Assembly: GCF_964194025.1 (NCBI RefSeq)
Contig: NC_134474.1
Coordinates: forward strand, 37,510,001-37,574,000
Source of the DNA: Convolutriloba macropyga
Taxonomy: Eukaryota
Direction of reading: 5' to 3'
Length of the DNA: 64,000 bases
Part shown: piece after piece, positions 16,481 to 60,022 of the stretch
Numbering within the stretch: the stretch's first letter is position 1
Layout of the letters: the number at the start of each line of letters is the position of its first letter
Program-made: the position numbers and the translations under genes
The notes under the pieces: generated by a model
Databases searched by the model: none
What the model saw: the letters and a program-made list of their open reading frames with translations, nothing else
What the model was told of the DNA's origin: nothing

Positions 16481-17399
16481 GCTGTCCTTTCAAAGCACGA
16501 GATAGACTCACTTAATGCTCATTATGGAACATATTGCACTTTTCGTCAATGAGTCTATGCTATAGGACACCAAAAAATTATCAAATCAGCAAAAAGAATA
16601 CCAAAATTTCACTTAAAATTACGAAAACTCGAGAGTCGAAGCAAAAAAACATGAGCAATTCCTTGGAATTTTTTGCTCAGTGGGCTTCATTTGACTGTAA
16701 ATCAGGTTTTTCATTATGAGAACCTCGATATGAAAAGTGACTAGTCTCTAGTTGACTTAAAAAAAAACAAAAACAAATTGAAAAGTAATCCCAAACAGAA
16801 TTCGATTTTTTTATTGTGAACTTTCCTATGAGACCAGTACTGGTCTTTTTATTGTCTTTGGTCTATTAGGAACACAAAATTGGTTAATTTTGTGGCGTGA
16901 ATTTTAATTTTGAAATACTGTTTTTTATAGAAAATATCCTAATTTAAAGAAAATTTACACTAAAAGTGAACAAAAACATGCCAAATATCCCGTGTTCACA
17001 CAAAACTTCAATCCTCGATAACTCCTTAAAAAAACGAAATTGAAAAAAATCTTTTTAATTTTGATTTCTACTCTAGACGAGCTTTTTAATGATACCACTC
17101 ACAATTCTCTACGATGAATATATCGATCGGCCAAAATTGTCTGAACAAAAAAACCCATTTGAGTATATAGTCCCCCCCACAAGTGGGGTCGGAACAATAA
17201 CCGTCGCTGACATTCTCAAAATAGTTGAACAAATGCGGACAAAATGCAGCCTACTTTTGTTTGTGTAATTTTTTTGCGTGAAAGATTAAATTGTTTTAAT
17301 CTTAGATTATATAAATTTTTGGTTCCAACTTTTGACAAAATTTTTTTGAAAATTATAAACAAACTGATCAATTTCTTAGATTAATATATATTTCTCATC

Positions 17400-32840: not shown

Positions 32841-33333
32841 AATAGCCACACAGCGATAGCTGTGGCTATTATTGGCCTTCTCATGACTTTTTTTTTATTT
32901 CGTCGTTGCGATTTTTGTTACGACTATATGACGTCACAATCACTTCAAATCTGCTTTTTGTTCATTCGTTCATGCAATTTCAACTGAAGTGCTTGTATGA
33001 CGTCATTTTTCGCTCTTAGTGGAGCGAGTTTTTCGTTCATTCGCGTGATCAAATTTTTGGTCACACTTGACTTACGTCACTCTCAAAAATGATTTCCTCA
33101 CTTTGAAGTTGACTTTTATTTACTTTAATTCAAAGAGATAAGGTCAAATGGATGTGTGTCACTCTAAATGAAGGTTATTTGAGAGCAGCAAAAATTTATA
33201 TAGATTTTTAATCAAAATATACCATATCGGCCTTCAATGAAAAGACGATTTTTTTAATCTGTCTTACTGTTTTTTTTGAGACTGCAGGTCTAAAAAGCTA
33301 TTGCGGCTATTTTCTGGCAGTCTGCCAGCTATG
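32841..33333 (+). mobile_element. HINE-like element nested in a T-run of the family A copy
   Basis: 5' AATAGCCACA...TGTGGCTATT; 3' GCGGCTATTTTCTGGCAGTCTGCCAGCTATG. Host sequence resumes on both sides. Confidence 0.75.
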
Positions 33334-33341
33334 TTTTTTTT

Positions 33342-36300
33342 AAATATGTGTTCACACATTTTTCAATGACTTTGATCTTTCAAAACGGGATAAACAGGTA
33401 AAGCCCAGCGGGCATTGAGTTTCATCAGAGGCCCAAAGGGGGCTTTACTAGTACTCCAAGTGCTTAGAGTGGTGCAGCTGCTGGTATGGGTAAGGTTAAA
33501 AGGTCTTTTTTAGGAGTTTTTGGGCTCGAAATCGTTCAATTTTTAATGTTTTTTGTGATTTTTTTGAGTTTTTTGTTTGATTAGTCTTAGGTGGAAGTTT
33601 TTAAAAGTTGATGAAGGCCTTGTGCGAGAGAAAATTACTTGTTATGACCATTTTATAAGCTATGTGTTTTGGTACTACAAACACTAACACGCAAAAATGA
33701 TACTAATTTTTGCCCTTTTTTCAAGTTTTTTTGAAAATTTTTGTTATTTTTAGCGTTTTCCCGGCTTCAGGGGCCAGTGAATCTCCTTTAAGGTTTGATA
33801 ATATGACACTTTATAGTTTCTAGTAATAATGGATTCGTTTTCAACATTTTAATGTCCCGAATTTTAGCATTCTTTTTGATAAAATCTGCATTTTTTTTGA
33901 GAATTCCTAAAGTTTTTGTCAATTTTTGATATTCGTCCATTCTCAAGTGCCAGAAAACCTATTCCACGGCCTGATCAAAATTTATTGTATGGTGGTTAGT
34001 TTCAATGGTTTTGTTTTCAACAATTAATCTTTTCGAATTTTAAAAATTTTTTTGAAAGAAATTTGCAATTTTTTTCAAATTTTTTCAAAGCATTTGTCTT
34101 TAATTCCTAACACGCAAAAAATGATACTAATTTTTGCCATTTTTTTTCAAGTTTTTTGAAAATTTAATATGTGTTCAATTTAATATGTGTTTTTTTAATA
34201 TGTGTTCACACATTTTTCAATGACTTTGATCTTTCAAAACGGGATAAACAGGTAAAGCCCAGCGGGCATTGAGTTTCATCAGAGGCCCAAAGGGGGCTTT
34301 ACTAGTACTCCAAGTGCTTAGAGTGGTGCAGCTGCTGGTATGGGTATAATTTAAGGTTAAAAGATCTTTTTTAGGAGTTTTTGGGCTCGAAATCGTGCAA
34401 TTTTTAATGTTTTTTGTGATTTTTTTGAGTTTTTTGTTTGATTAGTCTTAGGTGGAAGTTTTTAAAAGTTGATGAAGGCCTTGTGCGAGAGAAAATTACT
34501 TGTTATGACCATTTTATAAGCTATGTGTTTTGGTACTACAAACACTAACACGCCAAAATGATACTAATTTTTGCCATTTTTTTCAAGTTTTTTTGAAAAT
34601 TTTTGTTATTTTTAGCGTTTTCCCGGCTTCAGGGGCCAGTGAATCTCCTTTAAGGTTTGATAATATGACACTTTATAGTTTCTAGTAATAGTAGATTCGT
34701 TTTCAACATTTTAATGTCCCGAATTTTAGCATTCTTTTTTGATAAAATCTGCAATTTTTTTGAGAATTCCTAAAGTTTTTGTCAATTTTTGATATTCGTC
34801 CATTCTCAAGTGCCAGAAAATCTATTCCACGGCCTGATCAAAATTTATTGTATGGTGGTTAGTTTCAATGGTTTTGTTTTCAACAATTAATCTTTTCAAA
34901 TTTTAAAAATTTTTTTGAAAATTTGCAATTTTTTTCAAGTTTTTTCAAAGCATTTGTCTTTAATTCCTAACACGCAAAAAATGATCCTAATTTTTGCCAT
35001 TTTTTTTCAAGTTTTTTGAAAATTTAATATGTGCTCAATTTAATATGTGTTTTTTTTTTTAGTATGTGTTCACACATTTTTCAATGACTTTGATCTTTCA
35101 AAACGGGATAAACAGGTAAAGCCCAGCGGGCATTGAGTTTCATCAGAGGCCCAAAGGGGGCTTTACTAGTACTCCAAGTGCTTAGAGTGGTGCAGCTGCT
35201 GGTATGGGTAAGGTTAAAAGGTCTTTTTTAGGAGTTTTTGGGCTCGAAATCGTGCAATTTTTAATGTTTTTTGTGATTTTTTTGAGTTTTTTGTTTGATT
35301 AGTCTTAGGTGGAAGTTTTTAAAAGTTGATGAAGGCCTTGTGCGAGAGAAAATTACTTGTTATGATCATTTTATAAGCTATGTGTTTTGGTACTACAAAC
35401 ACTAACACGCCAAAATGATACTAATTTTTGCCATTTTTTCAAGTTTTTTTGAAAATTTTTGTTATTTTTAGCGTTTTCCCGGCTTCAGGGGCCAGTGAAT
35501 CTCCTTTAAGGTTTGATAATATGACACTTTATAGTTTCTAGTAATAGTGGATTCGTTTTCAACATTTTAATGTCCCGAATTTTAGCATTCTTTTTAAAAT
35601 CTGCAATTTTTTTGAGAATTCCTAAAGTTTTTGTCAATTTTTGATATTCGTCCATTCTCAAGTGCCAGAAAACCTATTCCACGGCCTGATCAAAATTTAT
35701 TGTATGGTGGTTAGTTTCAATGGTTTTGTTTTCAACAATTAATCTTTTCGAATTTTAAAAATTTTTTTGAAAGAAATTTGCAATTTTTTTCAAGTTTTTT
35801 CAAAGCATTTGTCTTTAATTCCTAACACGCAAAAAATGATCCTAATTTTTGCCATTTTTTTCAAGTTTTTTGAAAATTTAATATGTGCTCAATTTAATAT
35901 GTGTTTTTTTTTAATATGTGTTCACACATTTTTCAATGACTTTGATCTTTCAAAACGGGATAAACAGGTAAAGCCCAGCGGGCATTGAGTTTCATCAGAG
36001 GCCCAAAGGGGGCTTTACTAGTACTCCAAGTGCTTAGAGTGGTGCAGCTGCTGGTATGGGTATAGTTTAAGGTTAAAAGGTCTTTTTTAGGAGTTTTTGG
36101 GCTCGAAATCGTGCAATTTTTAATGTTTTTTGTGATTTTTTTGAGTTTTCTGTTTGATTAGTCTTAGGTGGAAGTTTTTAAAAGTTGATGAAGGCCTTGT
36201 GCGAGAGAAAATTACTTGTTATGACCATTTTATAAGCTATGCGTTTTGGTACTACAAACACTAACACGCCAAAATGATACTAATTTTTGCCATTTTTTTC

Positions 36301-39300
36301 AAGTTTTTTTCGAAAATTTTTGTTATTTTTAGCGTTTTCCCGGCTTCAGGGGCCAGTGAATCTCCTTTAAGGTTTGATAATATGACATTTTATAGTTTCT
36401 AGTAATAATGGATTCGTTTTCAACATTTTAATGTCCCGAATTTTAGCATTCTTTTTGATAAAATCTGCAATTTTTTTGAGAATTCCTAAAGTTTTTGTCA
36501 ATTTTTGATATTCGTCCATTCTCAAGTGCCAGAAAACCTATTCCACGGCCTGATCAAAATTTATTGTATGGTGGTTAGTTTCAATGGTTTTGTTTTCAAC
36601 AATTAATCTTTTCGAATTTTAAAAAATTTTTTGAAAGAAATTTGCAATTTTTTTCAAGTTGTTTCAAAGCATTTGTCTTTCATTCCTAACACGCAAAAAA
36701 TGATACAAATTTTGCCATTTTTTTTCAAGTTTTTTGAAAATTTAATATGTGTTCAATTTAATATGTGTTTTTTTTAATATGTGTTCACACATTTTTCAAT
36801 GACTTTGATCTTTCAAAACGGGATAAACAGGTAAAGCCCAGCGGGCGTTGAGTTTCATCAGAGGCCCAAAGGGGGCTTTACTAGTACTCCAAGTGCTTAG
36901 AGTGGTGCAGCTGCTGGTATGGGTATAGTTTAAGGTTAAAAGGTCTTTTTTAGGAGTTTTTGGGCTCGAAATCGTGCAATTTTTAATGTTTTTTGTGATT
37001 TTTTTGAGTTTTTTGTTTGATTAGTCTTAGGTGGAAGTTTTTAAAAGTTGATGAAGGCCTTGTGCGAGAGAAAATTACTTGTTATGACCATTTTATAAGC
37101 TATGTGTTTTGGTACTACAAACACTAACACGCCAAAATGATACTAATTTTTGCCATTTTTTTCAAGTTTTTTGAAAGTTTTTGTTATTTTTAGCGTTTTC
37201 CCGGCTTCAGGGGCCAGTGAATCTCCTTTAAGGTTTGATAATATGACACTTTATAGTTTCTAGTAGTAATAATGGATTCGTTTTCAACATTTTATTGTCC
37301 CGAATTTTAGCATTCTTTTTTGATAAAATCTGCAATTTTTTTGAGAATTCCTAAAGTTTTTGTCAATTTTTGATATTCGTCCATTCTCAAGTGCCAGAAA
37401 ATCTATTCCACGGCCTGATCAAATTTTATTGTATGGTGGTTAGTTTCAATGGTTTTGTTTTCAACAATTAATCTTTTCGACTTTTAAAAATTTTTTTGAA
37501 AGAAATTTGCAATTTTTTTCAAGTTTTTTCAAAGCATTTGTCTTTAATTCCTAACACGCAAAAAATGATACTAATTTTTGCCATTTTTTTTCAAGTTTTT
37601 TGAAAATTTAATATGTGTTCAATTTAATATGTGTTTTTTTTTAATATGTGTTCACACATTTTTCAATGACTTTGATCTTTCAAAACGGGATAAACAGGTA
37701 AAGCCCAGCGGGCATTGAGTTTCATCAGAGGCCCAAAGGGGGCTTTACTAGTACTCCAAGTGCTTAGAGTGGTGCAGCTGCTGGTATGGGTATAATTTAA
37801 GGTTAAAAGGTCTTTTTTAGGAGTTTTTGGGCTCGAAATCGTGCAATTTTTAATGTTTTTTGTGATTTTTTTGAGTTTTCTGTTTGATTAGTCTTAGGTG
37901 GAAGTTTTTAAAAGTTGATGAAGGCCTTGTGCGAGAGAAAATTACTTGTTATGACCATTTTATAAGCTATGTGTTTTGGTACTACAAACACTAACACGCC
38001 AAAATGATACTAATTTTTGCCATTTTTTTTTCAAGTTTTTTTGAAAATTTTTGTTATTTTTAGCGTTTTCCCGGCTTCAGGGGCCAGTGAATCTCCTTTA
38101 AGGTTTGATAATATGACACTTTATAGTTTCTAGTAATAATGGATTCGTTTTCAACATTTTATTGTCCCGAATTTTAGCATTCTTTTTTGATAAAATCTGC
38201 AATTTTTTTGAGAATTCCTAAAGTTTTTGTCAATTTTTGATATTCGTCCATTCTCAAGTGCCAGAAAATCTATTCCACGGCCTGATCAAAATTTATTGTA
38301 TGGTGGTTAGTTTCAATGGTTTTGTTTTCAACAATTAATCTTTTCAAATTTTAAAAATTTTTTTGAAAATTTGCAATTTTTTTCAAGTTTTTTCAAAGCA
38401 TTTGTCTTTAATTCCTAACACGCAAAAAATGATACTAATTTTTGCCATTTTTTTCAAGTTTTTTGAAAATTTAATATGTGTTCAATTTAATATGTGTTTT
38501 TTTTTTAATATGTGTTCACACATTTTTCAATGACTTTGATCTTTCAAAACGGGATAAACAGGTAAAGCCCAGCGGGCATTGAGTTTCATCAGAGGCCCAA
38601 AGGGGGCTTTACTAGTACTCCAAGTGCTTAGAGTGGTGCAGCTGCTGGTATGGGTATAATTTAAGGTTAAAAGGTCTTTTTTAGGATTTTTTGGGCTCGA
38701 AATCGTGCAATTTTTAATGTTTTTTGTGATTTTTTTGAGTTTTTTTTGATAATATGACACTTTATAGTTTCTAGTAATAATGGATTCGTTTTCAACATTT
38801 TATTGTCCCGAATTTTAGCATTCTTTTTTGATAAAATCTGCAATTTTTTTGAGAATTCCTAAAGTTTTTGTCAATTTTTGATATTCGTCCATTCTCAAGT
38901 GCCAGAAAATCTATTCCACGGCCTGATCAAAATTTATTGTATGGTGGTTAGTTTCAATGGTTTTGTTTTCAACAATTAATCTTTTCAAATTTTAAAAATT
39001 TTTTTGAAAATTTGCAATTTTTTTCAAGTTTTTTCAAAGCATTTGTCTTTAATTCCTAACACGCAAAAAATGATACTAATTTTTGCCATTTTTTTCAAGT
39101 TTTTTGAAAATTTAATATGTGTTCAATTTAATATGTGTTTTTTTTTTAATATGTGTTCACACATTTTTCAATGACTTTGATCTTTCAAAACGGGATAAAC
39201 AGGTAAAGCCCAGCGGGCATTGAGTTTCATCAGAGGCCCAAAGGGGGCTTTACTAGTACTCCAAGTGCTTAGAGTGGTGCAGCTGCTGGTATGGGTATAA

Positions 39301-40557
39301 TTTAAGGTTAAAAGGTCTTTTTTAGGATTTTTTGGGCTCGAAATCGTGCAATTTTTAATGTTTTTTGTGATTTTTTTGAGTTTTTTTTGATAATATGACA
39401 CTTTATAGTTTCTAGTAATAATGGATTCGTTTTCAACATTTTATTGTCCCGAATTTTAGCATTCTTTTTTGATAAAATCTGCAATTTTTTTGAGAATTCC
39501 TAAAGTTTTTGTCAATTTTTGATATTCGTCCATTCTCAAGTGCCAGAAAATCTATTCCACGGCCTGATCAAAATTTATTGTATGGTGGTTAGTTTCAATG
39601 GTTTTGTTTTCAACAATTAATCTTTTCAAATTTTAAAAATTTTTTTGAAAATTTGCAATTTTTTTCAAGTTTTTTCAAAGCATTTGTCTTTAATTCCTAA
39701 CACGCAAAAAATGATACTAATTTTTGCCATTTTTTTCAAGTTTTTTGAAAATTTAATATGTGTTCAATTTAATATGTGTTTTTTTTTTAATATGTGTTCA
39801 CACATTTTTCAATGACTTTGATCTTTCAAAACGGGATAAACAGGTAAAGCCCAGCGGGCATTGAGTTTCATCAGAGGCCCAAAGGGGGCTTTACTAGTAC
39901 TCCAAGTGCTTAGAGTGGTGCAGCTGCTGGTATGGGTATAATTTAAGGTTAAAAGGTCTTTTTTAGGATTTTTTGGGCTCGAAATCGTGCAATTTTTAAT
40001 GTTTTTTGTGATTTTTTTGAGTTTTTTGTTTGATTAGTCTTAGGTGGAAGTTTTTAAAAGTTGATGAAGGCCTTGTGCGAGAGAAAATTACTTGTTATGA
40101 CCATTTTATAAGCTATGTGTTTTGGTACTACAAACACTAACACGCCAAAATGATACTAATTTTTGCCATTTTTTTTCAAGTTTTTTGAAAATTTTTGTTA
40201 TTTTTAGCGTTTTCCCGGCTTCAGGGGCCAGTGAATCTCCTTTAAGGTTTGATAATATGACACTTTATAGTTTCTAGTAATAATGGATTCGTTTTAAACA
40301 TTTTAATGTCCCGAATTTTAGCATTCTTTTTGATAAAATCTGCAATTTTATTGAGAATTCCTAAAGTTTTTGTCAATTTTTGATCTTCGTCCATTCTCAA
40401 GTGCCAGAAAACCTATTCCACGGCCTGATCAAAAGTTATTGTATGGTGGATAGTTTCAATGGTTTTGTTTTCAACAATTTATCTTTTCGAATTTTAAAAA
40501 TTTTTTTGAAAGAAATTTGCAATTTTTTTTAAAGTTTTTTCAAAGCATTTGTCTTTT
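33342..40557. repeat. Tandem satellite array, ~860-bp unit (six full, two 641-bp deleted, one partial)
   Basis: Anchor GTTCACAC at 33350, 34204, 35068, 35920, 36783, 37650, 38514, 39155, 39796. Units differ mainly in homopolymer lengths and a few SNPs. Confidence 0.97.
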
Positions 40558-40891
40558 ATTCAGTTTTTCCTGCCTCTGTAGCCAGGTAACCTCATCCAGG
40601 TTTTGATAGTATGTTTTTAAATATTTGTCAAGGGGCAATTGATTGGTTTTCAACATTTTGATAGAACAAATTTCCATTTTTTTTGAAATTTGAAAATTCT
40701 AAAAATTTTTGCCTATCGATCTTTGAATTTTTTAAGGCTTAGAATTGGGTTACTGAATAGCCTCTAGAGACAAGAAATGACTCTGAAGAAATTAGTATCA
40801 CGATTTGCAAATTTGCAATTGATTTCGTTTTAAAAGTTTTTCGGTCATTTTTGAGTTAACCGATCTTCAAGAGCAAATGAATTTTTTTTCA

Positions 40892-44892: not shown

Positions 44893-45311
44893 TGTGATAA
44901 CCCTGACTATAGGGTACAATCGTGCTGTGAATCCACGTAGATTTAGAATGAATGGATTCGAGGTACGAATCCAAGTTTCCAACGTCAATTGGATTGTTAC
45001 TTTTAGAATTGACTACAATCGCGGTGCGAATGTAGACAAATTAAATGATGATGGATTTCTCCTTCAAATCCGTAAGTTTTTATCTAGTGGAAAAGAGATT
45101 AGATTGTGAACGACTGAATTCAGTGAGAAGATTCAAAAGAATGAATAGTTGAGTAAAAGTGGGAGGTGTGAACAGTATGAAATAATGACTTTTTAGTCGG
45201 CGGTAATTTATAATTATGTGAACATTGACTTTTAGTTTTACAAGGACAAGTATAAATTAATTAAGTACAATTTACTAAATGAGAACTAAATTATGGTACA
45301 ACCGTACCACA
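44893..45311 (-). repeat. 3' LTR
   Basis: 419-bp direct repeat of 51234-51653. Confidence 0.95.
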
Positions 45312-45747
45312 TATCCTGCGCTGAGCGAAAAATTTTAAACTGCATCAGTATAAAATTTAGAATAATATTAAAATATGTACTGGTTATTATAGATAGTATA
45401 CATAATGAGTAACGATAAATGAGTGCCGTAGGATTAGTGTATTTGAGTCGCGAATGTAAGAGAGAACGAACATAGCGGAAACTGACGACATATGCAGTAA
45501 ATTTTATGCACGCGATATAAATTAATGCACAAACGTGATGCGAATCCATCCAACTTTATAATACGCGAATTAGCGTTACAAATGTAACATCAAATTAAAG
45601 GAATGTAGAACTAACACACAATGAGAATTAAAATTAAACGAAAACATGAAATGAATGGAAAAGCAGCGCAATTCCGAAATGATTTTAACAATTACAGATT
45701 GGAAATAATTCAATAAGTTAACAATGACAGTTTGAAATAGTTTTAGT

Positions 45748-48700
45748 TTAAATTTGATTTTCCGCATCGAATACACTCATGCTAACTTCACGAGCGTAAT
45801 TGTCGTAATTGTATTCTTCAGAGGACCAAGTTCCCACTGGTGGTGGTGCAGAGGGGCTTGTAATCGTCAATTCATAGTCTGTTTCGGGAACTGGCGGCCG
45901 TGTAGCTTCTTCATGGAGAATTGTTTCGATCACCGGATTTGTTCGTTTCGGTTTTTTGGAAACCGGAGCTGTTGAATCGTCACTAACCGAATTGACCGAA
46001 CTTTCGAATCCGTAATATTCTGGGGCTCGTCGGTTTCGTTTAGTACTAGTATTTGAGGGAGACGTGGTTGAAGACGTTACTGAAGGGGCAGCAACAGACG
46101 ATGCATTTGACGTATTCAGACTCACCGATGTGTTACGTGATCGTTTTCCTCCGACTTGGGGCTTTCGTGGTTTTCGTGCCAACATTGCTTTTGAAATGTT
46201 GCTATTTGCAGATGACACACCCGATGCTGCATCTGACTGTGTTGGACGGTGTCGAATTTTGATCTCCCCGCGAAACTTCTTCTTTAAGTCCTTCGTGTGC
46301 TGTGCGATTTTTTCTTCCGTGGTTTTATCGTAAGGCAGGGGTCGACGTTGCGCATATTGCCATAGTTCAGTATTCCTTTCGGCGCGAGTACCGAATTTAG
46401 CAATATCGCTATTGCGAACACTTACTTCAGGTACTCCTGGTTCTTTGATGACGGTTGTCGTATCTGATGTACGAACAACCGTACTTCCTGGTGCCAGTGT
46501 TTCCCAAAGACCGCGAAGGTCTCGTTTGGAGCGTTTAGTCACCTTGCGAGCGAGCTTCAAGTCCAGTGACTTTTCCGATCTGGGGATGGGGTTATTCAGT
46601 TTTGGATGTAATATGAAGCGAGAGACAGATTTGTTGTGTTCGCCGTTGTAGCGGCGTCCGGCGTCAACTTGTGCCCTTTGCATTGCCTCTTCAATTAGGA
46701 TGTCGCTTCTGTCTCCCGTCACCCATCCATTTTCATCCAGGTAGTCCTCAACAGGGACAGTATCAGCGTCTAAATAGTGGTGAAGAATGTTTTCATATGA
46801 CAGATTAGATGATTTAGGTGTTGTACTTATATTACTTAGTGGTGTGTTTGGCTTTCGTCCAAAGTGTGCTTGGAAAGGTGTTACATTTGTAGTCTTTTGT
46901 TTACATATACGTAATTGATATACAATTGACTTTATTGCTTCTTTAATTGTGAATGTTTTATTTCTATTGTCTAATTTCATGCAGCCTAAGCGTCTTTTAA
47001 TTGTTTGTATTAAACGCTCCACTAATCCTATGGCTCTATGATCGTTTACAGGGGCAGGTAGTATGTTAATATTATGTTGTTTGCAAACGTTTTTAACTTT
47101 ATAACCTATTAAACATCGTGCTTGATCAAGTCTAATATTTCGGGGAACACCGTGGATTTGAATGTAATCGTCTAAACATTTTAGTACATTTGGTCTATTA
47201 GCTTTATCAAATACTTCTACAGAAGGATATTTGGAAAAACGATCAATACATGCAAGAAAATATGTATCTTGATCTTTTTCATTCGTGATAGGACCTCCAA
47301 AATCAATCTGTATTTCTTCATTTGGCTCTGTACATGGCAATAAAGGTTTCCAATTAGACGCCGGAATAACAGGTTTAAGGTTCTTACCAATATCCGTGCA
47401 AGGCTTGCACGTGGCCGCTTTATTTAGAATTTCGCGGTGCATGTACGGCCAGAACGCGTATTGGCCAAGCGTTATCATCCCCCAACTTCCTGGATGCGTT
47501 AAGTGGAGGCTTTCCAAGACCGCGTCTTGAATGGAGTGTGGAATCGCAACGCGTTCGTCCACACAAACACATCCTGAGCGGACGTGCAAGTCTCGCCAGT
47601 ACGAGAATAGGTACGGGTTGACTTCCTTGCATCTCTGGGGGTCATCTTGAAGTATGCAATCCCGTACCTCCTTCAGAACTGCGTCCTTGCTGGTCAGTAC
47701 TGCCAGAAAGCCTTTTGTGAACAACTGTGTCAAGTTGTTCTCAAACACCTCTTCTTTTGACAATTCGACACTAGGGGAAGAGTGTCCATCATTCGAAGAT
47801 CGGGTCGTTCCTGAATTTGGAGTGGATTGAAATGTCACTCGGCTGTGGGTAGGGGGAGTTTGCGGGTTTCGGCTGTGTGAAGGAGAAGTACTCATTTTGT
47901 GGTTTTCAATTACGTGGATATGAGTTTGGTTGGATCTAGTATTTACTTGTGACTGGATTTGAGTTGAATTTGTACTGGTATTAGAATGAGATTGCAATTG
48001 TGCTGCGTGTGCAGAGTATTTAAGAAGCAACTGATTTGTGTTTCGATTAATGGCCGAAAGCAAATTGGAATAGTTTGTTGAGCGAGGATGTGAGGCACGT
48101 GTGGAATGTGTGTCAATGACGCTGTTAAAGTGTCGTGATTGGCAGGTTTGTGGTGTGGTATTTACATAAATTGCTGCAATTGCGTCACGAATGCGGGTAA
48201 TTGTTGCTACCGCAAATTCCTCGTCATATTTGTTTGTAACTTTTGCTTTTTGATTTGGTTGGCGGGAAATATAATCTACCAGCCCCATTTTTGCACCGGG
48301 GATATGTTCAATGTTAAAGTCAAAAGGTAAAAGACGATCAATCCATCGTGTTAATCTACTATTTTAAGATTTGTTTGATCTGTGTTCTTTCATGATTGAG
48401 AGTAATGCTCGATGATCTGTGATGATTGTAAATGATTTGCCAAATAAATAATATTTAAAATATTCGACGGACCACACAACGCCTAGTAATTCAAGTTCGT
48501 TAATGCTATAACGTTCCTCATTTGAGTTAAGGAATCGAGATGCAAATGCAACTGTATGCCAACCTGTAGGTGAACGTTGTTCTAGTGCTGCTCCTAACCC
48601 TGCTCTAGAAGCATCGCATTTGATCCGCGTTTCCAAGTGAGGATTGTAGTGTGTGTTTTCTGTGGCGTTTGCTACTCTATTTTTAATTGCTTGGAAATGT

Positions 48701-51234
48701 GTGTCATGTTCTATGTTCCAAATAAATTTTGTGTTCTTTTTTAATAATGGACGAAGAGGATGACATAATTGGGATAAGTTAGGAATGAATTTACCAAGGT
48801 AGTGTACAGAACCTAAAAATGATCGGAGTTGTTTTAAATTTTTAGGTGCTGTTAGTGATGCGATTGCCGCTGTTTTTGACTCAAGTGGAGCTATTCCAGA
48901 TTGACTGAATTTATGTCCTAACCATTCTATTTCGGTTTTTGCAAAATGACATTTAGGTAAGTTGATTCGTAGATTATCCTCATCTAATTTTTGTAAGCAC
49001 TGGTAAACAAGTTTTAAGTGGTCTTCTTTGGACCCACGGCTAACCACTATAATGTCATCTAGAAAGCAGTAAGTATTTTTTAGTCCGACTAAAGTATAGT
49101 CCATTACTTTTTGGAAAGCTGCTGGCATATCAGTTAAACCGTAGAAACCTGTAATGAACCGATATGTTCCCGTTCTCTCACCGCTGATAATATTAAAGTT
49201 ACAATATCTGGCCGTTTCCGGATTTAATTTAAGTTGGCTGTATGCGTACTTCATATCCAGTGTGGAATAATATGCTGTTTCCTGTGATGCGGATGTGTTT
49301 AAATTTTGCTGAATTGTGTCAATCAAATTATCAATATTTGGCATTTGATATTTGTTTTTGTGAATAGACTTATTTAAAATTTTTGAATCTAGTGCTAATT
49401 TAACTGTTTTATCTCTTTTAACTGTAATAACTATAGGTGAGATGAAATTTTTGTCGGAACAACTATTTAGTTTTATGATGTGTTTTTCATCAAGTAATTT
49501 TTTAAGTTCTATATTAACTAATGGTTGTAAATTAATAGGTACTCGTCTTCCTTTTTGATGAGTAGGTGTAAATTCACTATGAAATGTAGACTTTACTGAA
49601 TGTTTTAAAGATTTACCGACGCGGGTGATGAGTTCAGGAAAGTCAAAAGAAATTTGCCGCTTAATTGGGCATTGATTTTGATCAATGTTTGCCACTTGTA
49701 TTGATTGGATTACTGAGAAACATAGTTTTGGGAAAAGGTCTCGTCCAATGATTGGTCGGTGACCATCTTCAACGACAGTTACATCAACATCTGTGGCTAT
49801 CCAGTCGTTACACTTTATTGATGTCTTGATTATAACTATTATCTTGATTATGTCATTGGAGAAGGTTTTTAAATCGTGTATTTCAGGGGACTGTATCCAA
49901 TAGCTATCTTTGCATTCCGATACCACTTTGTCTGCTAGACTTTTGTTAACGATCGTACAAACACTTCCTGAATCCACCAATGCTTTGGTGCTTGTATTTC
50001 CAACTCGAATGTCCAAATTTACGGGTTCTACCTCACGGGTGTCGGTATTGTATGAGATTGCCGCTACACAATTGTCATCGTAATCATCGTAGTCGGAATC
50101 GTAATTGGCATCGTATATGCTCTTTTGTTGAAGAAGTTTGCTAATATTATTTACTTGTTCGGTCACTGATGTCGTGGTGCCGACTGTAGCCGCTTCCGAA
50201 ATTGAGTCATCTACGTAATTTACTCGAGATCTAGGTTTGTTAGCTTGTTTTGGTTTTCGACAAACCTTAGCGAAATGGTTAGAGATTCCACAATTTTTAC
50301 ATATTTTCCCACGGGCGGGACAATTTTGTCTATGAGAGGGAGTCCAACCATACCCACAATTTGGACAGATTGTCGGTTTTACGAATTGATTTGTAGATGG
50401 TCGCTTTCTATTCCACGATCCTTGGACATTGTTTATCGAGTGAACTTCATTAGTTGAATTGGTTGTTGCGGTTCCAGAGATTTTTAGTTGTGTTTGTATG
50501 CCCATTTCGATACTAATCGCAATTTCGAGAGCTTTTTTAGGTTCTCGTGTTTCTTTTAGCAATTCTCTTTGGATTTCTCCATCTTGCATGTTAGCGATAA
50601 ACACATCCCGTATTATCGATTCCTCACGGCTTCCTAAATCACAATTTAGGGAAAGTTCTCGAAGGCACCCGTAGAACTTTTCCACTGGTTCGCCTTTCAT
50701 TTGTTTTCGAGATAAAAATGTATATCTGTCAAATGTAATATTCCTTTGTTTGGTGAACACTTCATCAAGGCATTCCCAAAGAACTTTCATGGTCACTCTG
50801 TCAATTTAGATACTTGGTTCCTGTGAACCAAAAATTCGTCTCCCTTCAACTCCCAGGCTGAGATACGTTAGGGATACTGCTTTACTGTCACAGTATTTCC
50901 AAGGCTTTTCCCCACATAGTATGCCCACAAGTTCTGCTTTCTGGCATCGGTTAAGCCATGAGTTTTTTAGCTGTTCATTCCTAGTACGTCTGTCTCTTTC
51001 GCTTTGAGCAGTGCTGTTTTGAACGTCCTCCTCGTAGATGGGTTCTGGAGGAAGGGTAACTTTGTCTGGGGGGTCATCAAGAAGAGTATCGATTGATATT
51101 CCTTCTTTAGCCATGATGGCTAACTTTAGCATGACCTGCCATCTGTCCCATTGCAATGGAGGTTCCAACGTCGGTTTTTCCCAAAAGGGCTCGATTCCCA
51201 AGAGTGCGCGTTCTTTTGTAGCTGACTGCGCCAT
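45748..51234 (-). pseudogene. Single-frame gag-pol polyprotein (~1828 codons) with two premature TAA stops
   Basis: ORFs 50806-51315, 48364-50796 and 45748-48288 share one frame. Two zinc-knuckle motifs (CPNC...H...C, CKNCGISNHFAKVC), protease LVDSGS, RT FLDD, RNase H CDAS/TDH, integrase HHCC + IDF/LDQ/VER. Confidence 0.92.
51221..51233 (-). promoter_or_regulatory. Primer-binding site, probably tRNA-Ser
   Basis: TGGCGCAGTCAGC directly abuts the LTR and is complementary to a ...GCUGACUGCG-CCA tRNA 3' end. The Ser assignment is from recollection of invertebrate tRNA-Ser acceptor stems. Confidence 0.8.
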
Positions 51235-51653
51235 GTGATAACCCTGACTATAGGGTACAATCGTGCTGTGAATCCACGTAGATTTAGAATGTATGGATTC
51301 GAGGTACGAATCCAAGTTTCCAACGTCAATTGGATTGTTACTTTTAGAATTGACTACAATCGCGGTGCGAATGTAGACAAATTAAATGATGATGGATTTC
51401 TCCTTCAAATCCGCTAAGTTTTTATCTAGTGGAAAAGAGATTAGATTGTGAACGACTGAATTCAGTGAGAAGATTCAAAAGAATGAATAGTTGAGTAAAA
51501 GTGGGAGGTGTGAACAGTATGAAATAATGACTTTTTAGTCGGCGGTAATTTATAATTATGTGAACATTGACTTTTAGTTTTACAAGGACAAGTATAAATT
51601 AATTAAGTACAATTTACTAAATGAGAACTAAATTATGGTACAACCGTACCACA
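51234..51653 (-). repeat. 5' LTR
   Basis: 420-bp direct repeat, immediately followed on the minus strand by the PBS. Confidence 0.95.
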
Positions 51654-54600
51654 GAGCCTATTACGAGTTTTCTATTGTTACCTGAGCGTTTTTGTCATCT
51701 GAATTAAAGTAAGGTGTTCATTTTATGTGCACTTTGTATATGAGTAAATACTGGAATCTTTTATTTTTTATTTCATTTGATTTTTGAGGCTAATTAATTC
51801 ATTAATTAACTTTAAATTGCTGTTCTATTTTTTTCTTGAGTGGATTCTGTATGTAACAGTTTTCTTGAAGGTTTCTTTTTTGTGCAGAGCTGACACCGCA
51901 AGCTCAAGATGTTTCCGGAATTCTTTCGGCTGTATAATAGTCAAAATTAATCTAGAGTGAAATTGAAGCCTGAAGTGAAACTTGTAAAAAGCGTTGTTGT
52001 ACTGCTGATTAATTGTAAAAATCGGAGCGAAAATGCAGAAGTTTATTGATAACATTTATTGATAAGTTTATTGATAACAGACAATTTATGAAAATTTAAC
52101 CATTTTTGTCAAGTTCTTGCAGTTTTTTTCTCTTTTTAAAATATAGGAACAGTTTGTTAGCCTATTATGATTTTTCTGCTGATTGGTCATTCATTTATTG
52201 ATACGAAGTGCAGAAAAGCAGATTTTTACTTTTTTTGCATTTCTGATATGCTACGTTTTTCGGCTTTCTTCTATTGTTTTTTTTGCTTTAGATTGATTCT
52301 AGACGTCTTATGGTTTGCTTCCGGCTTTGTTTTAGAGCAAGCAGGAAATTGAGTGAATAGAGTTTGAAAATTTTGTTTCTGTGAACAAAATCGAAGAGCT
52401 CAGAAAAGAGTTATTTTAATCCTGCCTTCTTTTGAAACAAAGCGAAAAATGTTGGTGTGCTTGTGTTGGGTAATCCAATATTATCAGAGACTTTTTTTAT
52501 TGTCTCAATTGCGTGAAATAATGTTTTCCGTTTGTAATTGTACTCGTACAAATTGAAAACGTAAATGTTTTGGGTTCGTTTTCGGGATAATTTGCTTTTT
52601 GGCTACTTTTTCTTCCGCTATTTCAATTAAATATTTTTTTTCTGATCTTTGATGCTGACTGTCATCACGAACTAGTTATCTGAAAGGCTGGTTGTTTGGC
52701 GAAGATGTCTTCCAGTTGTTTTGAAATTTTCTGGGAATATTTTTCCCGGCAACGAGAAGTGAGAGCTAGCAAAGAAACCGGAAATTCAGGGAGTGAACAG
52801 AATTTGAAAAGCAATTTTAAACATATTTGAATGGATCTCTAGAATCGTTATTTTGTTCATCCCTTCTTTTAAAACAGCAAATAATGTAGGGGTAGAAGTT
52901 TTTCGCTGAGTGATCAAATATTTTTTTTCAAGTGCTGCTGTTTCAAGCTGTTTTTTAGTTTTATGTTATCTAAGAAATCTATATTGTAAGCTGAAGGAAG
53001 AGCCTTCAGGTAGTTTCGATAGCAGTTGAAAGTTTTCTGTCAATTTAATTGATTTTTACGCTATTATCAAGTTTTTCCACTCTTTTTAGGATTCATGCTA
53101 TTTTTGCAGTTTTGGGCCCTTCATGTTAATTTTTTTGCATTTAATGATAGTTGAGTTGAAGCCCAATGGTTCCAGTTAGTTTTTTTACGTTTTAAATATA
53201 TAGTGCCGGTAGACCCCAGTTTCGTTGACAAAACAATTCAAAAGTTATTTATAATTTTTCTTATTTCTGTTAGTTTTCTCTATGTATTTCAGAAGAAGAG
53301 ATATTTTTTAGCTTGACGTGGGTTGTCTAATATTATGCCAGCGATTGCTCTGTCTCGATTGCATGTAAAAAAGTTTTTTCATGCACTTGTATTCTTGTTG
53401 TAATTGAAAATGGAATTGAATTTCCTGCTTTTTTTTAGTAATGTACTGTTTTGGCTAATTTTCTTTTTGTTGTTTACTTCCATTTTCGGCTCTGATGCTT
53501 GCTGGCATTAGATTCTAGATTTTAAAAAACTATCTTTTTTCGGTGGGGACAATTTCGTGTCGTTTCGTAACATTTGCGGTGCTTTTTGCAGGAAGTGCTG
53601 TGCGTTCAAGCGAAAATGTGTGGTGTCACTATTATGTAACTCTCTGGAATTCATATTCAGTGATTTTGAGGGTCTAATTGTTTTTCAAACGAAAAGTTGG
53701 CTTATATTTACTGGTGTCTATGGTGGTGTGCTACATTAATCTTGTTACACTAATCTAGTGTTTCCTGCTTTGCCTATGAGTTCTTGAAAATTTTTAGTAC
53801 TCGCCTTTTTGCTGGCCCGATTTTTTTGTTAACCCAATTTCTCCCGATCGATATATTATCTCTTTTCAAAAGATACAGAAATGAGATTATTAGAAAGCCT
53901 TCGAAAAACCGCTTTGTTGAACAAAGTTTATCATTTTACTGGCTACTCGTGACAAAATCGACCTTTCAAATTTGAAAAAAAAAACCTTTTGCATTTCCTA
54001 CTTGCTTAAATGTGCAAGTACAATTATGTCCTCTTAAGTGCATATAATTTGAATAGACTAATGACAGTATCGAGATAAAACTAATAGAATAGATGCAACA
54101 ATTTAAACTGACCGCAAATAATTGGGTGTTAAAAGTGTCCAAACAGCAAGAAACAGATGCAGTAAGTATAATAACATGTAATGTAATATCATTTGAAAAT
54201 GATTAACAGTAAATTTTCGGTTCGTGTATCACGAAATTATAGTTTTCGTTTTGTGCCGTTACGGTCAGCAGAAGGCGGTTTTTATATTGCTAATAACTAA
54301 AGATGAGATTTTGAGAACGTTCATTTTAATTTGTGATGTTGTTCGTGGCATTTTATAAGGAGTCATTTTTTTATTTTAGGAATTAAGTTAAAACTGAAAT
54401 ATTGAGTTATTTTAATAGTCATGTGTTTGGAGACTTGTGTACATCTGAATATACTCATTTCAGTTGTAAAATTGAACTAACCGTATTAGGATGATCGTAG
54501 ACGTAAAGACTGACGAAGTTGTTGACAAACCAACAATAACGGTAAATTTGCTGAGTTTATTTACCGAACACCAAAACCCAGCATAATCTAATTTGTGCTC

Positions 54601-54944
54601 TTATTATTGAGTTAAAAGATGAACACTGTTATTAACCGTGCTGGACGTGGGGTGAGAATGATGAAAGTGGTGGCGAATAGTAAAGAAAAGAAGTTGGCAG
54701 ACAGAGAATTGAGGCGGCGGTTAAAAGAAGTGGATCGGGAGCGTTTGATATTAATATGCAAGGAGCAAATAGCCTGTGGCTGCCAGGAGTGATGGAATGG
54801 AAACAGGAACGGAATCAGAGGAGGAGATTATTAGGGAAATGATTTGTATCTCGTATTATTATTATCGTCATCATCATTGTATCTATCGTCATCAACATTA
54901 TCGTTGTTTTATATATGTATATAGTCTTGATTTTCTAATTTAAT

Positions 54945-55892
54945 TTAATGTGGTTTTGGCTCCACTTTCCGTACAAGATTGACATGACCGAACTCTTCGT
55001 CATTTACCGAGAACGCAAGAAGCATAGCGGGAGCCGATGGGCCAGCGTGCGTGCCCGCATAACTTTCCCAGTGACCTTCTGGCTGTCCTGGTGAACTAAC
55101 ATAGATATAGACATTAGTTGCAAGCGCTCGCGCAATCATCCGTAGGTTGGTTGAACTGAGCTCAGTAACATCTTCGGTCGAGTTACTAGACCGTACCCCA
55201 TCGGGGAGATCAAATAGGTAACGATTCGGTCCTGTTTGTCGCAGACGTTTCACCCAGTCTTCGATAATCCCACCAGAATCGCGATCTCCATTAGGCACTG
55301 CCGATAATGCTGAACATACGCAGTTGTACGTATAATGACTCGTACGTACGGCTCTATATTGGAACTGAGTGACATCGAGGGAATCCGAACTGAAAGAATG
55401 TAGCTATGTGATTACAAAAGTATTGTTTATAGGATATTTCAAAGGACTATGTTGCTTACTTCTGCAACACTCGAGAAACTGATTTAGTTCCATCAAATGG
55501 GATTCGCAATTGCTTACATAGTCGCGCTACTCGGAGCCTGTTAATGTGAATCATAGGTTCGGTCTTACGAATCTCGATACGTTGTTGGCACTTTTCGCAC
55601 TGTCGCAATTCGCTGGCAAATCGGACGTAACCTTTCGACGTGGTACTTGCCACGAACCAAAAGGTCGAGCTGCACGCGGTTAGGGTGACCTTCGTCTTGA
55701 TGCATCTTCAGTAGCGTAGGATATGCGTCTTCACTGTGAAGAACTTGTTTCCCACTTCTGCAAGGTTTTCCGTCCCGGATAGTGACTAGGCCAAGCTTCG
55801 TCCGGAAATGTTGTTCTTTGCGGATGAAGCTTTGAGGATGTCTTAGAGAGCTTTTTGTTGTGTAATATCTTGTTATACTCACTGACGTCCAT
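54945..55892 (-). pseudogene. Two-exon gene: integrase-type H2C2 zinc finger fused to an OTU-like cysteine protease; two frameshifts
   Basis: Exon 1 55892-55460 (MDVSEYNKI...LLKMHQDEGHPNR...KYHV...CEKCQ...LCKQLRIPF). 70-bp phase-2 intron 55459-55390 (GTAAGC...TTTCAG). Exon 2 55389-54945 (YNCVCSALS...NG; MIARALATNVYIY; W.SY; GHVNLV). Confidence 0.65.
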
Positions 55893-56285
55893 TATATTTG
55901 AAAGAAACTTGAGTTTTACAAAATTCATAATTTTGGTCAATTCTGAATATTTTTACAAGTTGGGGACTGAAATTTTGCACCCCCCTCGATTTTTTGAAGA
56001 CGATATGACTGAACCAAGCTGGGGTCACCATCGCCCTAGGGCACCCCTAAGCTATTTACAAACCAGGATTGGTAGTGCCAGCTTTACCCAGTACGGATCT
56101 ATTAACACTTATAAGGGGAGAAAGTGATAATTCTGGAGTAAAATCCGAAATCGACCATTTTTGAGTATAATGGACGCTTTTCATATTAGGGTGCAATAAG
56201 GCCCTAAGCCTACGTCTGATTAGGTAGAATACGAACTATACCCCCCAAACTGCGCTATGTAAACAAAGGACCCAGAAACACAAAT

Positions 56286-56603
56286 TTAGTAGTAGGAAAC
56301 TAAGTATACGTTGACTTGTCGGCCATTTTGATTATTTTGGTAATTATGTGCTTCCCTCGTGACTAGGCCGTCAGCCTGTAACTGTTTGACTGATACGTAG
56401 TCCCTAACCCGGAATTCCCCTATGTAAACAAACTGCCCGTGACCCCGGAAAATCTCGGAACCTGTATTTGTGTTGTAAGTTGTGTTATTTGGGCGGCCGT
56501 CTTGACTGACCTTAGTAAGTGCGTCACCATATTGCGGCATTGGTATTATGGAATGTAAACAAAGTGGCCAATAGCGTTGTAGAGAGCTGAATACTTGTGT
56601 CAT
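56286..56603 (-). CDS. Orphan 105-aa ORF inside the 2.9-kb element
   Basis: ATG-initiated, intact, protein-like composition (FVYIGEFRVRDY). No family confidently recognised. Confidence 0.4.
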   Translation of the reverse strand: MTQVFSSLQRYWPLCLHSIIPMPQYGDALTKVSQDGRPNNTTYNTNTGSEIFRGHGQFVYIGEFRVRDYVSVKQLQADGLVTREAHNYQNNQNGRQVNVYLVSYY

Positions 56604-58730
56604 GATGACGTTTGTTTGTTTAAGCAAACATATTGTTTGCTCAGCTTAGTATAAAAGCGGCTTCCACTATAAGCGCAGCGCAGAAGTTGCAAATCGCGAA
56701 CAAGTTAATTATCGATTGTTTGGCATGGTTTGTCGGTATTTTTGAGCGAGAGGCTCTTGTTAATCGTGATTAAGCGTCGTTGCGTTTAACTTTGCCGGGG
56801 CCAGTAGGCGAGATGCTCTGAATAGTCGCTGAGTCGAGCTTAGATTATTTGGCAGTTTTGCCGGTTAGTTCGAGCGGGTAGCTCGATTAGCGTTCTAGCG
56901 TGGTTCAAATCGCTTGGTGACTAGTTAGTTGTAGAGCTATTGCTCTGGTAGTTTTTGAGTTACGGCGTTTATCGCGGGTATATAATCGAGCCGTAGTTTT
57001 TTGTTTTCTCGGGATTTTTGGGTTGATTTGTGCTTACGGATTACCAGTCAGTACTCTGAGTAGTTCTAAGTGTGTGTTAGTTAGTTAGTGCTGTAGAGTT
57101 GCTGTTTTAGTTGGATAGCAGTTGTTGATTGTTGCTTATTTAGATTAATATTTACTGTTACTTTGGTTGATTTTTTATCTATTTATTTTGTTAATTGATT
57201 AGTTGCACTAACTGTTTGTTTGAGCCGGAAAGAGCAAGTAAAAGGGGTCATAAACAAGATCGAACCACCTAACAAAACAACCTTTTGAGTTGTGAGATCT
57301 GGGCGCTAGTGCCCGTTCTAGGCTGCCCAATAAAGTTCAGAATCTTACATCAGATCTGACTTTTTGTGAAAATTGAAACAAACTAGAAATATGTCTGTTT
57401 AAAAAAAATCATCTGTACTAGATTTTGTATACTTGTTGGTTTTTTCACTAACTTTTTATTGAGCCAGTCTGAATTATTTATTTGTCCAACACGTTCTGAC
57501 TAATTTATCAAGTTTTTGCTGTTTCATATCCAAGTAAAAATAAGATTTTTTTTGGCGAAAAATTTTGTCGATAGTCAACTGTGATCTGTATTATCAGTTT
57601 TCATAGAACCAACGGTAGTTAGTGTCATTATTTACGTTTTCGGGAGTACATTTTACTGTTGAAAAAAATCGGTTTAGCTCTTTGATGTTAGCAGCTGCCA
57701 ATCCAACTTAATTTTTTTTTGTGATTTCGAATAATATCTTTTTTCGTTTCTGATCATCTGTCTCAGTCTTGGAAATTGATGTATATTAAATGAGTTACAC
57801 TAGAATGTTTTTTTTTGAGAAAAATAATTGAGAAAAAATGCTTTTACTACGTATAATATGCAGTTTTATTTGAATTTCATTTTATTTCATCTTGATTGAT
57901 ATCACAAATTTTCGCCAATTCCGGAAGACTGTTATCGGTATGCATATGTTGTTACTATCTGTTGTTACTATTGTTTCGACTGTTGTTATCTTGGTTCTCT
58001 GGTTTTGATTTCTGTTACATAGCACAAAAGTTGATTTTTTTATCAAAGTTTTCTGTTAATCTGTCATCGTATCTAATGATAAATTCCTAATGGATCAGTG
58101 GATGATGTAAAAATGCTTTATTTAATAAGTTTGCAGTTGTCAAAATTTGATTTCTGTACTCGAAATGATTGTCTGGTTACCGGTCAACTCTTATTTTAAT
58201 AGGGGGAAGACGATCTTAAAATAAATATCTATAGATTTGCGTCTCCGTTAAATCTAGTTTTTTGGACTCTGATAAATTGGTTAGCAAATGACAGGGTGAC
58301 GTTTTAACTGCAAACGCACATTGCTGATTCTCTTTGTCTTCTGTCCGAAGCGAATAACGTCTCTTGTTTCTGTCAAAATTATTGGGGGTGACATACCTAT
58401 GACAACAATTTACTTAATATCACCATACGAGTTCTTTTTGCCACAAATGCAAGTTAATTAAATTAAAAGGGATTGTTTTTGTAAAACAAGAAACGGTATT
58501 TTTAATTTTTCTCCATGGGAACTTTGTCTTATTATTTTGTTTGTTGTACCCCTCTTTGAACCTGTGGATCTTTATTCACGCTTTCGATCTCTCCACTTCT
58601 GGCCTTAGGCGGTAGATACTAGACACTTCTATGTCACGTTGTCATCTGCAAGTCATATGTAGCCTTAAATTTTGTTTGGAATATGTCCGAACTAATAAGC
58701 AGTAATTGTTATGATAGCTTGTTTTTTAAG

Positions 58731-59024
58731 GTTTTCCTCTTTCTCTAACCTCAAAACAATACCAGCCAGCCATCTCAACTAGACCAGCATCGGAATTGAA
58801 ATACCTACCTCTGGGAACTGTGGATCGAAGTGTTCCTGCAGTGGAACTTCTGGACTCTAAGGAGGATCCGGACTTTCCGTCCTCTGTTGTCTCGGATGGT
58901 GGTGAGAATGACAGGGAACTCAGTTCTGATTCAGGCTGCTTATCAGACGAAGAAAAAGAAAAAGTACAGACAGGTCTCAAATGTAACCAATCAACTACTG
59001 CTAAAGAAGCGGATGCCAAGAAAG
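58731..59024 (+). CDS. PHF10: PHF10 orthologue, exon 3
   Basis: TTTTAAG|GT, phase 1, gives SFPLSL...SELKYLPLGT (cf. YPVAL...DELRYLPLNT), then an acidic Ser-rich linker. Donor at 59024 is the best phase-1 candidate. Confidence 0.8.
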
Positions 59025-59246
59025 GTCGTATAATTTCTATGCACCCACCAATGCTTAAGGTTTCAATTGCAGAAAAGGTTATCAAACGGTTAATTTGAAC
59101 ATTCAGTATAGCCTTTTAAATCCAGACATCAAGTTTTTAGACACCATGAAACAAAGAGCATACCCTACGAGTCATTCTCATTATTAAAGTTTTCTCTGTT
59201 TAAGAAAATTTTTTTGTTAAATTTATAGTTAACATTAAGTGTTTAG

Positions 59247-60022
59247 ATGTTCAACTACTCCTGTCTGATCAGCCACAACTGGGCGAGTTGTGTGCAGCGT
59301 GTTATGGTGACTCTGATAACAACCAACTGTCAGTGCCCGAATCTCTTGTTAGGTGCACGACATGCAAGAGCGATTACCATCTGAGTTGTCTGAAACTGAA
59401 ACCCGACCTGCGCAATCATTTTGGAACCACTGGCTGGACTTGCTTCAAGTGCAAATCATGTCCTCAATGTGAGAAAAATGTTACAATTACTGAATGCAGT
59501 GAAACGCATTTTGAGAACCAGTCGGTATTTCGATGTTGTAACTGCGATAATTTGTACCACGTGAATTGTTTGTCAAATGCGAAATCTGAGAATCGGTTTG
59601 ATTCCCTAAAACCTGTAGGAAGATGGGCGTGTCCCAAATGCGGAAATTGCGCATCTTGCCTCACCCGATGGTCATTTGAGTGGAAAATGGAGTTCACGCA
59701 ACCTGTTGAAATGTCGCACTTTCCGAAGTTCCTTCAAACACATTGCTTGGATTGTTCGAACAAGTTCAGAAGAGGGCTATTTTGTTCAGTGTGTTTGAAA
59801 GTGTTCAACACTGAGAAGAAAATGTTGGTGAGTTCCACCTTGCAATGTGGTCGATGTTTCCTCTTAGTTCACATGGAATGTGATGCGAGAATTCCAAAAG
59901 AGAACTTGCTCGAGATTTTGTCGACACGATTCTATATTTGCCGAATTTGTAGAGGCGAAGCCCCGAATGTGCTTGGATCATACGTGAAAGAAGCTGAGAA
60001 ACTTGATAGTCCGAATTTGTGA
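59247..60022 (+). CDS. PHF10: PHF10 orthologue, last exon (tandem PHD fingers plus extra Cys-rich/PHD module)
   Basis: Double PHD (CAAC...CTTC...HLSC...WTCFKC; CPQC...CCNC...HVNC...WACPKC), then CASC...CLDC and a third PHD. The four exons sum to 1848 nt (615 aa + stop). Confidence 0.88.

Follow-up and report, generated by a model that had tools for sequence, protein, structure and literature searches.

A finger–OTU gene lacking a DDE core within a 2.9-kb LTR-like mobile element of Convolutriloba macropyga

The window analysed here is a whole stretch of 64,000 nucleotides of Convolutriloba macropyga DNA (assembly GCF_964194025.1, contig NC_134474.1, positions 37,510,001 to 37,574,000 of the forward strand), and all coordinates below are counted from its first letter. 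Its content is of animal type, with collagen-like exons, open reading frames (ORFs) encoding RING/TRAF and PHD-finger proteins, and one Gypsy element, and on the minus strand of its right part lies a broken gene that joins an integrase-like H2C2 zinc finger to an OTU-like domain (Table 1). The full Gypsy element occupies 44893-51653 on the minus strand, with LTRs of 420 and 419 bp, a 5-bp duplication (GGCTC), TGT..ACA ends, and a TGG primer site that overlaps the start of gag; its gag-pol is a single frame in which two stops intervene, one near 50806 and one near 48364. A second, related Gypsy copy at 25647-28928 is more decayed, 76-84% alike, and contains an N gap. A satellite-like tandem array spans ~33300-40700 and consists of about nine units of 850-870 bp and two 641-bp spacings, 97-100% alike in parts. 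A 37-bp sequence occurs twice in opposite directions (53821-53857 and 17117-17153), flanked on either side by 34-53 loose-ended contigs per run, and is the end of an abundant small repeat. No Rfam match was found over 52000-60000, and the 64-kb window contains no second copy of the finger–OTU gene or of the element that carries it.

Table 1. Coordinates of the features of the window, with the strand on which each is read.
Feature	Position	Strand	Remarks
Host ORF, RING plus TRAF zinc fingers	7420-8511	-	
Host ORF, ACTMAP-like protease C-terminal domain	30734-31348	+	
Left target-site copy TCAGT	54460..54464	+	Empty allele has one copy
Dispersed mobile element, 2,885 bp	54465..57349	+	TGTAAAA...TCTTACA; ~15-bp imperfect inverted ends
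AATAAA, candidate gene poly(A) signal	54556..54561	-	~385 nt past the stop; putative function
Broken finger–OTU gene, ~290 codons	54945..55892	-	H2C2-like finger and OTU domain; opposite in direction to the LTR-like signals
Exon 2, OTU catalytic domain	54945..55389	-	Cys 55322-55320; His 54986-54984
Predicted 70-bp GT-AG intron, phase 2	55390..55459	-	Donor GTAAGC at 55459; acceptor TTTCAG ending at 55390
Conserved segment G/E-P-M...L-C-x-x-L	55460..55587	-	N-terminal part of the OTU module
Integrase H2C2-like finger	55588..55800	-	His 55702 and 55687; CEKC 55599-55588; second frame break at 55600
Start ATG and first frame break	55800..55892	-	ATG at 55892, MDVSEYN; break somewhere in ~55860-55800
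Three TGTAAACAAA copies in ~305 bp	56258..56563	+	Candidate enhancer between gene start and TATA box
TATAAAA, candidate LTR promoter	56650..56656	+	Sole plus-strand TATAAA in the element
AATAAA, candidate LTR poly(A) signal	57329..57334	+	Sole plus-strand copy; 15 nt before the ACA end
Right target-site copy TCAGA	57350..57354	+	5 bp with one mismatch, or 4-bp TCAG plus an extra terminal base
Host ORF, PHD fingers	59204-60022	+	

A first-pass annotation of this DNA had read the gene as a protein of about 290 residues, obtained by correcting two frameshifts and removing a 70-bp, frame-preserving GT-AG intron, in which the finger passes directly into an OTU-like protease. Three-frame translation recovers every motif on which that reading was built, namely HQDEGH (H-x4-H) at 55702-55685, CEKC at 55599-55588 in a different frame, and TYNCVCSALS, ARALATNVYIY, and GHVNLV in exon 2, whose stop ends at 54945. 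Some 43 codons separate the last finger Cys from the intron donor, close to the ~45 residues that had been given and too short for an integrase core. The predicted intron has the best consensus at both ends among 20 in-frame GT-AG pairs; the unspliced frame terminates at its donor, and it has no counterpart at the same place in the unbroken frames of two relatives, P0008 and P0023.

The two frame breaks fared differently. An N-terminal profile made from three relatives, which were found via the OTU exon alone, ranks both broken frames of the window first and second among 1,587 six-frame window fragments, and the two abut at profile positions 97/98; bridging the break with an X gives the N-terminal part 44.4 bits, and the highest of 1,000 shuffles reaches 9.6. 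The break at 55600 is seen in each of the sequencing runs, where 5-8 contigs per run differ in length exactly there, and since other copies differ in length at this place, the break is not common to all copies. The upstream break, which had been placed near 55850, is needed judging from the sequence, as the gene start fits the M-x4-Y-N start of the relatives (of 1,105 ATG-led 11-mers in the window, two reach that score, one being the gene start); its position is bounded only to about 55860-55800, where three frames score alike, and no length difference at this break was present among the 12 listed of 135 indel rows. The window copy is a decayed pseudogene, with its two frame breaks and an Asn where 18/22 rows have Asp, and the coding places at which it departs from nearly all contigs include three residue-changing and two silent ones (the 5 listed of over 1,200). 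None of four window frames gave an acceptable Pfam match on its own; their sole matches, CHAP (E 0.083) and HTH_21 (E 0.11), were rejected.

An exhaustive search with exon 2, run with no length limit, returned 24 matches, 22 of them real and the longest 286 aa; the remaining two, P0021 and P0022, are Ig/pentapeptide repeat proteins and were dropped. Two relatives are intact: P0008 (286 aa) and P0023 (273 aa) each consist of one unbroken frame, which starts with M-x4-Y-N and leads from the finger straight into the OTU domain with no DDE core. The finger region and OTU domain are likewise in one frame in P0010 and P0007, and it is from these four contiguous frames that the absence of a DDE core is drawn, since the libraries call genes without splicing and short fragments are therefore uninformative on other exons. 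P0008 and the X-bridged window reading share 28% identity in an alignment of 239 columns (E 5e-28), and the landmarks of the two (window/P0008) fall at His 65/64, CxxC 100/101, NC 168/165, and a length of 293/286. The G-P motif and the catalytic Cys are 51 apart in 4/4 relatives and 56 apart in the window copy after splicing; P0007 has a segment lengthened similarly to that of the window copy. Members are 25-35% alike across the family, and a tree of 20 OTU parts resolves several well-separated subgroups, with the window copy beside P0001 and P0002 (100/99). The tails of P0003 and P0014 match DNA past the stop of the window gene, and divergent contigs match the OTU exon alone, ending at 54944, the stop codon, from which we infer that close relatives are copies of the element and that distant ones are held by coding sequence.

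Searches for longer or additional relatives added little. A word-index homologue search with query A1 gave 4 matches; the source labels of 4 relatives are Logan for one and ENA for three. Neither a profile/word-index search with A3 (502-2000 aa, 7,999 candidates) nor a word-index homologue search with exon 2 (259-2000 aa) yielded a relative in its size range, both being weak negatives. A candidate locus, L001, was rejected, as it matches just 19 leader residues of P0019 and fails the family profile. The direct joining of finger and OTU-like domain without a DDE core, which had been proposed from the window copy, is borne out by the unbroken P0008 and P0023 with their same spacing as a conserved arrangement, and we consider it very likely that these proteins form a real family, which is apparently undescribed.

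The finger itself is less uniform than the domain that follows it. All four H2C2 ligands are present in the window copy and P0008, and the fourth (the last Cys) is absent from P0023, P0009, and P0010. Of the integrase affinity that had been expected of the finger there are sub-threshold signs: the Integrase_H2C2 profile (PF17921) matches 2/23 rows, P0008 and P0023, at E 3.8e-4 (20.9 bits) and 6.1e-4 (20.3 bits), both under the Pfam cut-off of 25.5 bits; the true integrase of the neighbouring Gypsy element likewise scores just 23.3 bits on this profile, under the same cut-off. The N-terminal part of the P0008 model gave middling, mixed matches, with the Ty3 entry 7q5b (Z 5.6) among unrelated rows. 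An additional Cys stands ahead of the finger CxxC (residue 94 of P0008) in P0008, P0023, P0010, and the window copy, and might replace the missing last ligand. By eye, P0023 also contains Y..P..Y..F, which may be compared with the YPYY motif before the finger of Ginger1.

The structural match to OTU proteases that the first-pass annotation had anticipated was found in a predicted model of the relative P0008, folded with a 23-row alignment in place of the window copy (pLDDT 81.7); a single-sequence fold of window exon 2 reached a pLDDT of 35.7 and was set aside. The first 24 VIA rows for the P0008 model are OTU enzymes, among which we take VCPIP1 and 3von to belong, and the best is OTUD1 (Z 11.3, rmsd 3.4, 129 residues aligned). 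All 34 among the matches listed by Foldseek against the PDB are OTU domains, none of which reaches E 0.001. By sequence, the Pfam OTU profile (PF02338) matches 0/23 rows at E<=1, and a PDB sequence search with A1 and A2 gave nothing below E 0.4. Nairovirus OTUs match the model at Z 9-10.6, with alignments that begin at model residues 103-106. The segment LCKQLRIPF is present as had been noted, and its reading as a linker does not stand: it is modelled at pLDDT 95-98 and, because it aligns with the N-terminal part of the nairovirus OTUs, it belongs to the OTU module.

The gene lies within a bounded, polymorphic 2.9-kb mobile element, a point new relative to the first-pass annotation. In the contigs of four runs (two samples, one study), every one of the 14 bins over 54453-57490 has a depth 8-141 times the median of the flanks, where the ratios use 12/16 flank bins, the four with other repeats being left out, and summed contig depth is not equal to copy number; tens of related element copies are implied. 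Single places within the finger–OTU gene are covered by 13-23 contigs, and by bin the depth is 7.7x for the 3' untranslated part, 15x for the bin holding the intron, and 22-28x for the exon bins, a pattern that would fit selection on the coding part. Three segments (55755-56188, 56623-56839, and 57274-57349) reach 60-140 times flank depth versus 15-28 times in the gene, and the promoter and end modules seem common to more abundant repeats that may lack the gene. An empty site is present in one contig of run X3, which joins 54463 to 57361. In runs X1 and X2, a contig of depth 44-50 links 53994 to 57162 with 17 other letters between, and is perhaps a second haplotype without most of the element, or another copy. 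Besides exon 2, the element contains no ORF of at least 120 aa.

The signals of the element run in two directions, with the TATA box and terminal AATAAA pointing away from the gene and the gene and its own AATAAA (54561) facing the opposite way. The chance of an AATAAA so near either element end is about 5%; the stretch between TATA and AATAAA is A-poor (A 0.21), and no GT-rich stretch follows the terminal AATAAA. The TGTAAACAAA motif, which we take to be a forkhead-like site, has three of its four matches in the window within 56258-56563, the motif having been chosen after it was seen. A kappaB-like site at 56411 was not retained, as its count was reached by 10/100 shuffles and is not above chance.

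Several of these features are those of an LTR: TG..CA termini, short inverted ends, a 4-6-bp duplication, and a TATA box followed by an AATAAA near the 3' end. LTRs of animal Metaviridae/Gypsy elements have short inverted ends, a TATA-like stretch, and, in some clades, an AATAAA close to the 3' end (PMC3601003), and duplications of 4-6 bp accompany most LTR retrotransposons (PMC12440569); the neighbouring Gypsy element likewise combines TGT..ACA ends with a duplication of 5 bp. The element's 5' end fits TGTNANR, and the 3' end is one base off CNTNACA. A TGG primer site is absent after the right target-site copy, the window holds no full-length element with a primer site, gag-pol, and a polypurine tract between two such repeats, and loose contig ends at the element termini do not occur among the 24 rows listed. 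The LTRs of the neighbouring Gypsy element are 420 bp long and lack an AATAAA, versus the 2,885 bp of the present element. Gypsy elements, mainly of plants, are known with antisense extra ORFs (PMC4408406, PMC8220671). On balance, the element is slightly more likely than not an LTR.

The main alternative, which we consider rather unlikely, is that the element is a non-autonomous, Ginger-like cut-and-paste transposon whose transposase lost its DDE and GPY/F domains early and was kept as a helper, the finger binding the element ends and the OTU domain protecting a partner, and that an autonomous Ginger1 or Ginger2 transposase moves it in trans. Ginger1 transposases have the order finger-DDE-GPY/F-OTU and 1-4 GT-AG introns, the transposons have TGTNR ends, and the OTU-bearing ones are 2.6-4.6 kb long (PMC2836005); the present element is 2.9 kb long, begins with TGTAA at both ends, has one intron, and has the two outer domains in the same order. 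TGT..ACA ends are common to Ginger transposons as well (PMC2836005), and Ginger2 is able to make 4- or 5-bp duplications (PMC10045372). However, the inverted ends measure ~15 bp rather than 40-270 bp, the target is TCAG(A/T), neither CCGG/CCGT nor RTATAY, and the TATA box and terminal AATAAA are directed away from the gene, while the OTU domains of Ginger1 are recognised as pfam02338 (PMC2836005) and those of the present family are not. The ends, with their TCAGT/TCAGA duplication, lend no support to the Ginger1 or Helitron context that the first-pass annotation had named. Our best explanation of the whole, on which we are evenly divided, is a Gypsy-type solo LTR that carries an antisense accessory deubiquitinase gene.

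As to the encoded protein, the first-pass annotation had left it between an atypical deubiquitinase and a ubiquitin-binding decoy. In the P0008 model, the core helix starts with Cys166 and the last strand with His276 (DSSP); the Cys is kept in 15/15 covering rows and the His in 12/15, one of them doubtful. A catalytically weak or dead decoy, which we regard as improbable, would account for the loop before the Cys, where the usual DG is replaced across the family (Gly at -2 in 0/15, Asp at -3 in 4/15), and for the third triad residue, which is not kept (Asp/Asn at His+2 in 1/11); the additional Cys two residues past the nucleophile (N-C-x-C; residues 166-168 of P0008), invariant in 17/17, might also bind metal or be oxidised. 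These departures make "atypical" a fair description, but the retention of Cys and His across members that are 25-35% alike renders an active Cys-His enzyme likelier than a decoy. Their placement is that of the turnip yellow mosaic virus (TYMV) OTU, a Cys-His dyad that is active without the Asp and the oxyanion hole (PMC3744425), and another pared-down Cys-His OTU can be active (PMC10318531). We consider the intact finger–OTU members probably catalytically active.

A viral source is more doubtful still: the gene could be left over from a large DNA virus or a polinton-like element and have been taken up later by the repeat. Among Atlas clusters, those nearest to exon 2 consist of small hypothetical proteins, 60-100% viral and mostly of Nucleocytoviricota (0.92; 0.90, with OTU in 19% of members; 0.89), and in BFVD the best match is to a protein of a fish herpesvirus (E 2.5e-4). 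Yet these are likenesses of feature and fold that are common to OTUs, the whole of P0008 gave no usable Atlas match, and the element holds no other gene. No true relative was found in the viral contigs scanned, no locus of a relative in these or in the JGI metagenomes scanned, and no phage match for the family. The two breaks, and the want of a Pfam match for any single piece, would fit a single accidental deletion inside an ordinary transposase copy, or frames read together by chance. This view is very hard to maintain against 22 relatives, of which the unbroken ones are ~30% identical and keep the same spacing of finger and OTU, and against the tens of related copies in the runs, whose depth runs on without a gap over finger and OTU; it would require P0008 and P0023 to be independent deletions with identical spacing.

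Under the solo-LTR reading, the locus would be the solo LTR of a Gypsy-type family whose long U3 carries an accessory gene on the opposite strand, with a two-way promoter at ~55900-56680. In one direction this promoter would drive the element RNA (TATA at 56650, AATAAA at 57329) and in the other a spliced antisense mRNA (AATAAA at 54561); an intron could survive in a retroelement because the gene is antisense, so that splicing would not take it out of the RNA used for copying. The product of ~290 aa may be an isopeptidase of the Cys-His type that takes off ubiquitin or a ubiquitin-like tag and acts in trans, its targets being either the element's own proteins or host silencing or defence proteins. 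The integrase-derived helical finger would then serve for docking onto DNA, chromatin, or integrase and not for catalysis, and the simplest origin would be an integrase or Ginger1-type transposase that lost its core long ago. Bao, Kapitonov, and Jurka (2010) suggested that the proteases of such transposons act in transposition (PMC2836005). We tentatively propose, as a possibility about which we remain doubtful, that an animal Gypsy-type lineage keeps an intron-bearing, stand-alone deubiquitinase gene in the antisense of its LTR, aimed by a reused integrase finger, as a counter-defence comparable to viral OTUs that each element would carry twice and each solo LTR would retain in expressible form.

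Why transposons carry OTU and Ulp1 proteases was raised as an open question (PMC2836005), and a protease long kept apart from the DNA-cutting core implies usefulness by itself; the compact natural 286-aa member P0008 makes the OTU-in-transposon question testable. Should the carrier prove to be an LTR, it would also be one of few LTRs to contain a complete, spliced accessory gene, which solo-LTR formation would spread. Within the literature searched, outside which lie Repbase and most subscription journals, we found no published DDE-less finger–OTU protein or OTU gene within an LTR. The finger–OTU gene on a mobile element is a real, conserved new arrangement of known parts, and comparison with the known systems indicates what is shared and what is particular to it.

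Among known OTU deubiquitinases, OTUD1/OTUD3, yeast Otu2, nairovirus vOTU, and TYMV PRO share with the family the fold (Z 9-11) and the placing of the Cys and the His where the core helix and the last strand, respectively, begin; at 8-22% identity to these enzymes, the family differs in having N-C-x-C rather than D-G-N-C-L, no kept third triad residue, and an integrase-like finger in front. Ginger1 transposons with a C-terminal OTU have an H2C2 finger, H2C2-like in the present family, upstream of the OTU domain, and share a GT-AG intron, a TGTNR start, and a length of ~3 kb, whereas the present element lacks the DDE core, the GPY/F domain, the long inverted repeats, and the CCGG/CCGT site, and its OTU is missed by Pfam (PMC2836005). 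Helitrons and Helentrons also exemplify an OTU-like protease carried by an animal transposon (PMC6431247); unlike them, the element has no Rep/helicase ORF and has TGT..ACA ends and a target duplication. Ubiquitin-pathway domains occur in giant planarian elements (PMC6431247), and plant Tat/Ogre antisense eORFs (PMC4408406) and planarian Burro (PMC6431247) resemble the present case as accessory cargo that is partly antisense or ubiquitin-linked, but their ORFs are located between the LTRs or within the polyprotein, have other domains, and are not known to include an OTU. Animal Gypsy/Metaviridae solo LTRs, finally, share with the element the TG..CA termini, the TATA box followed by AATAAA, the 4-6-bp duplication, and the polymorphic insertion, and the element stands apart from them in its length of 2.9 kb and in carrying a whole spliced gene on the opposite strand (PMC3601003).
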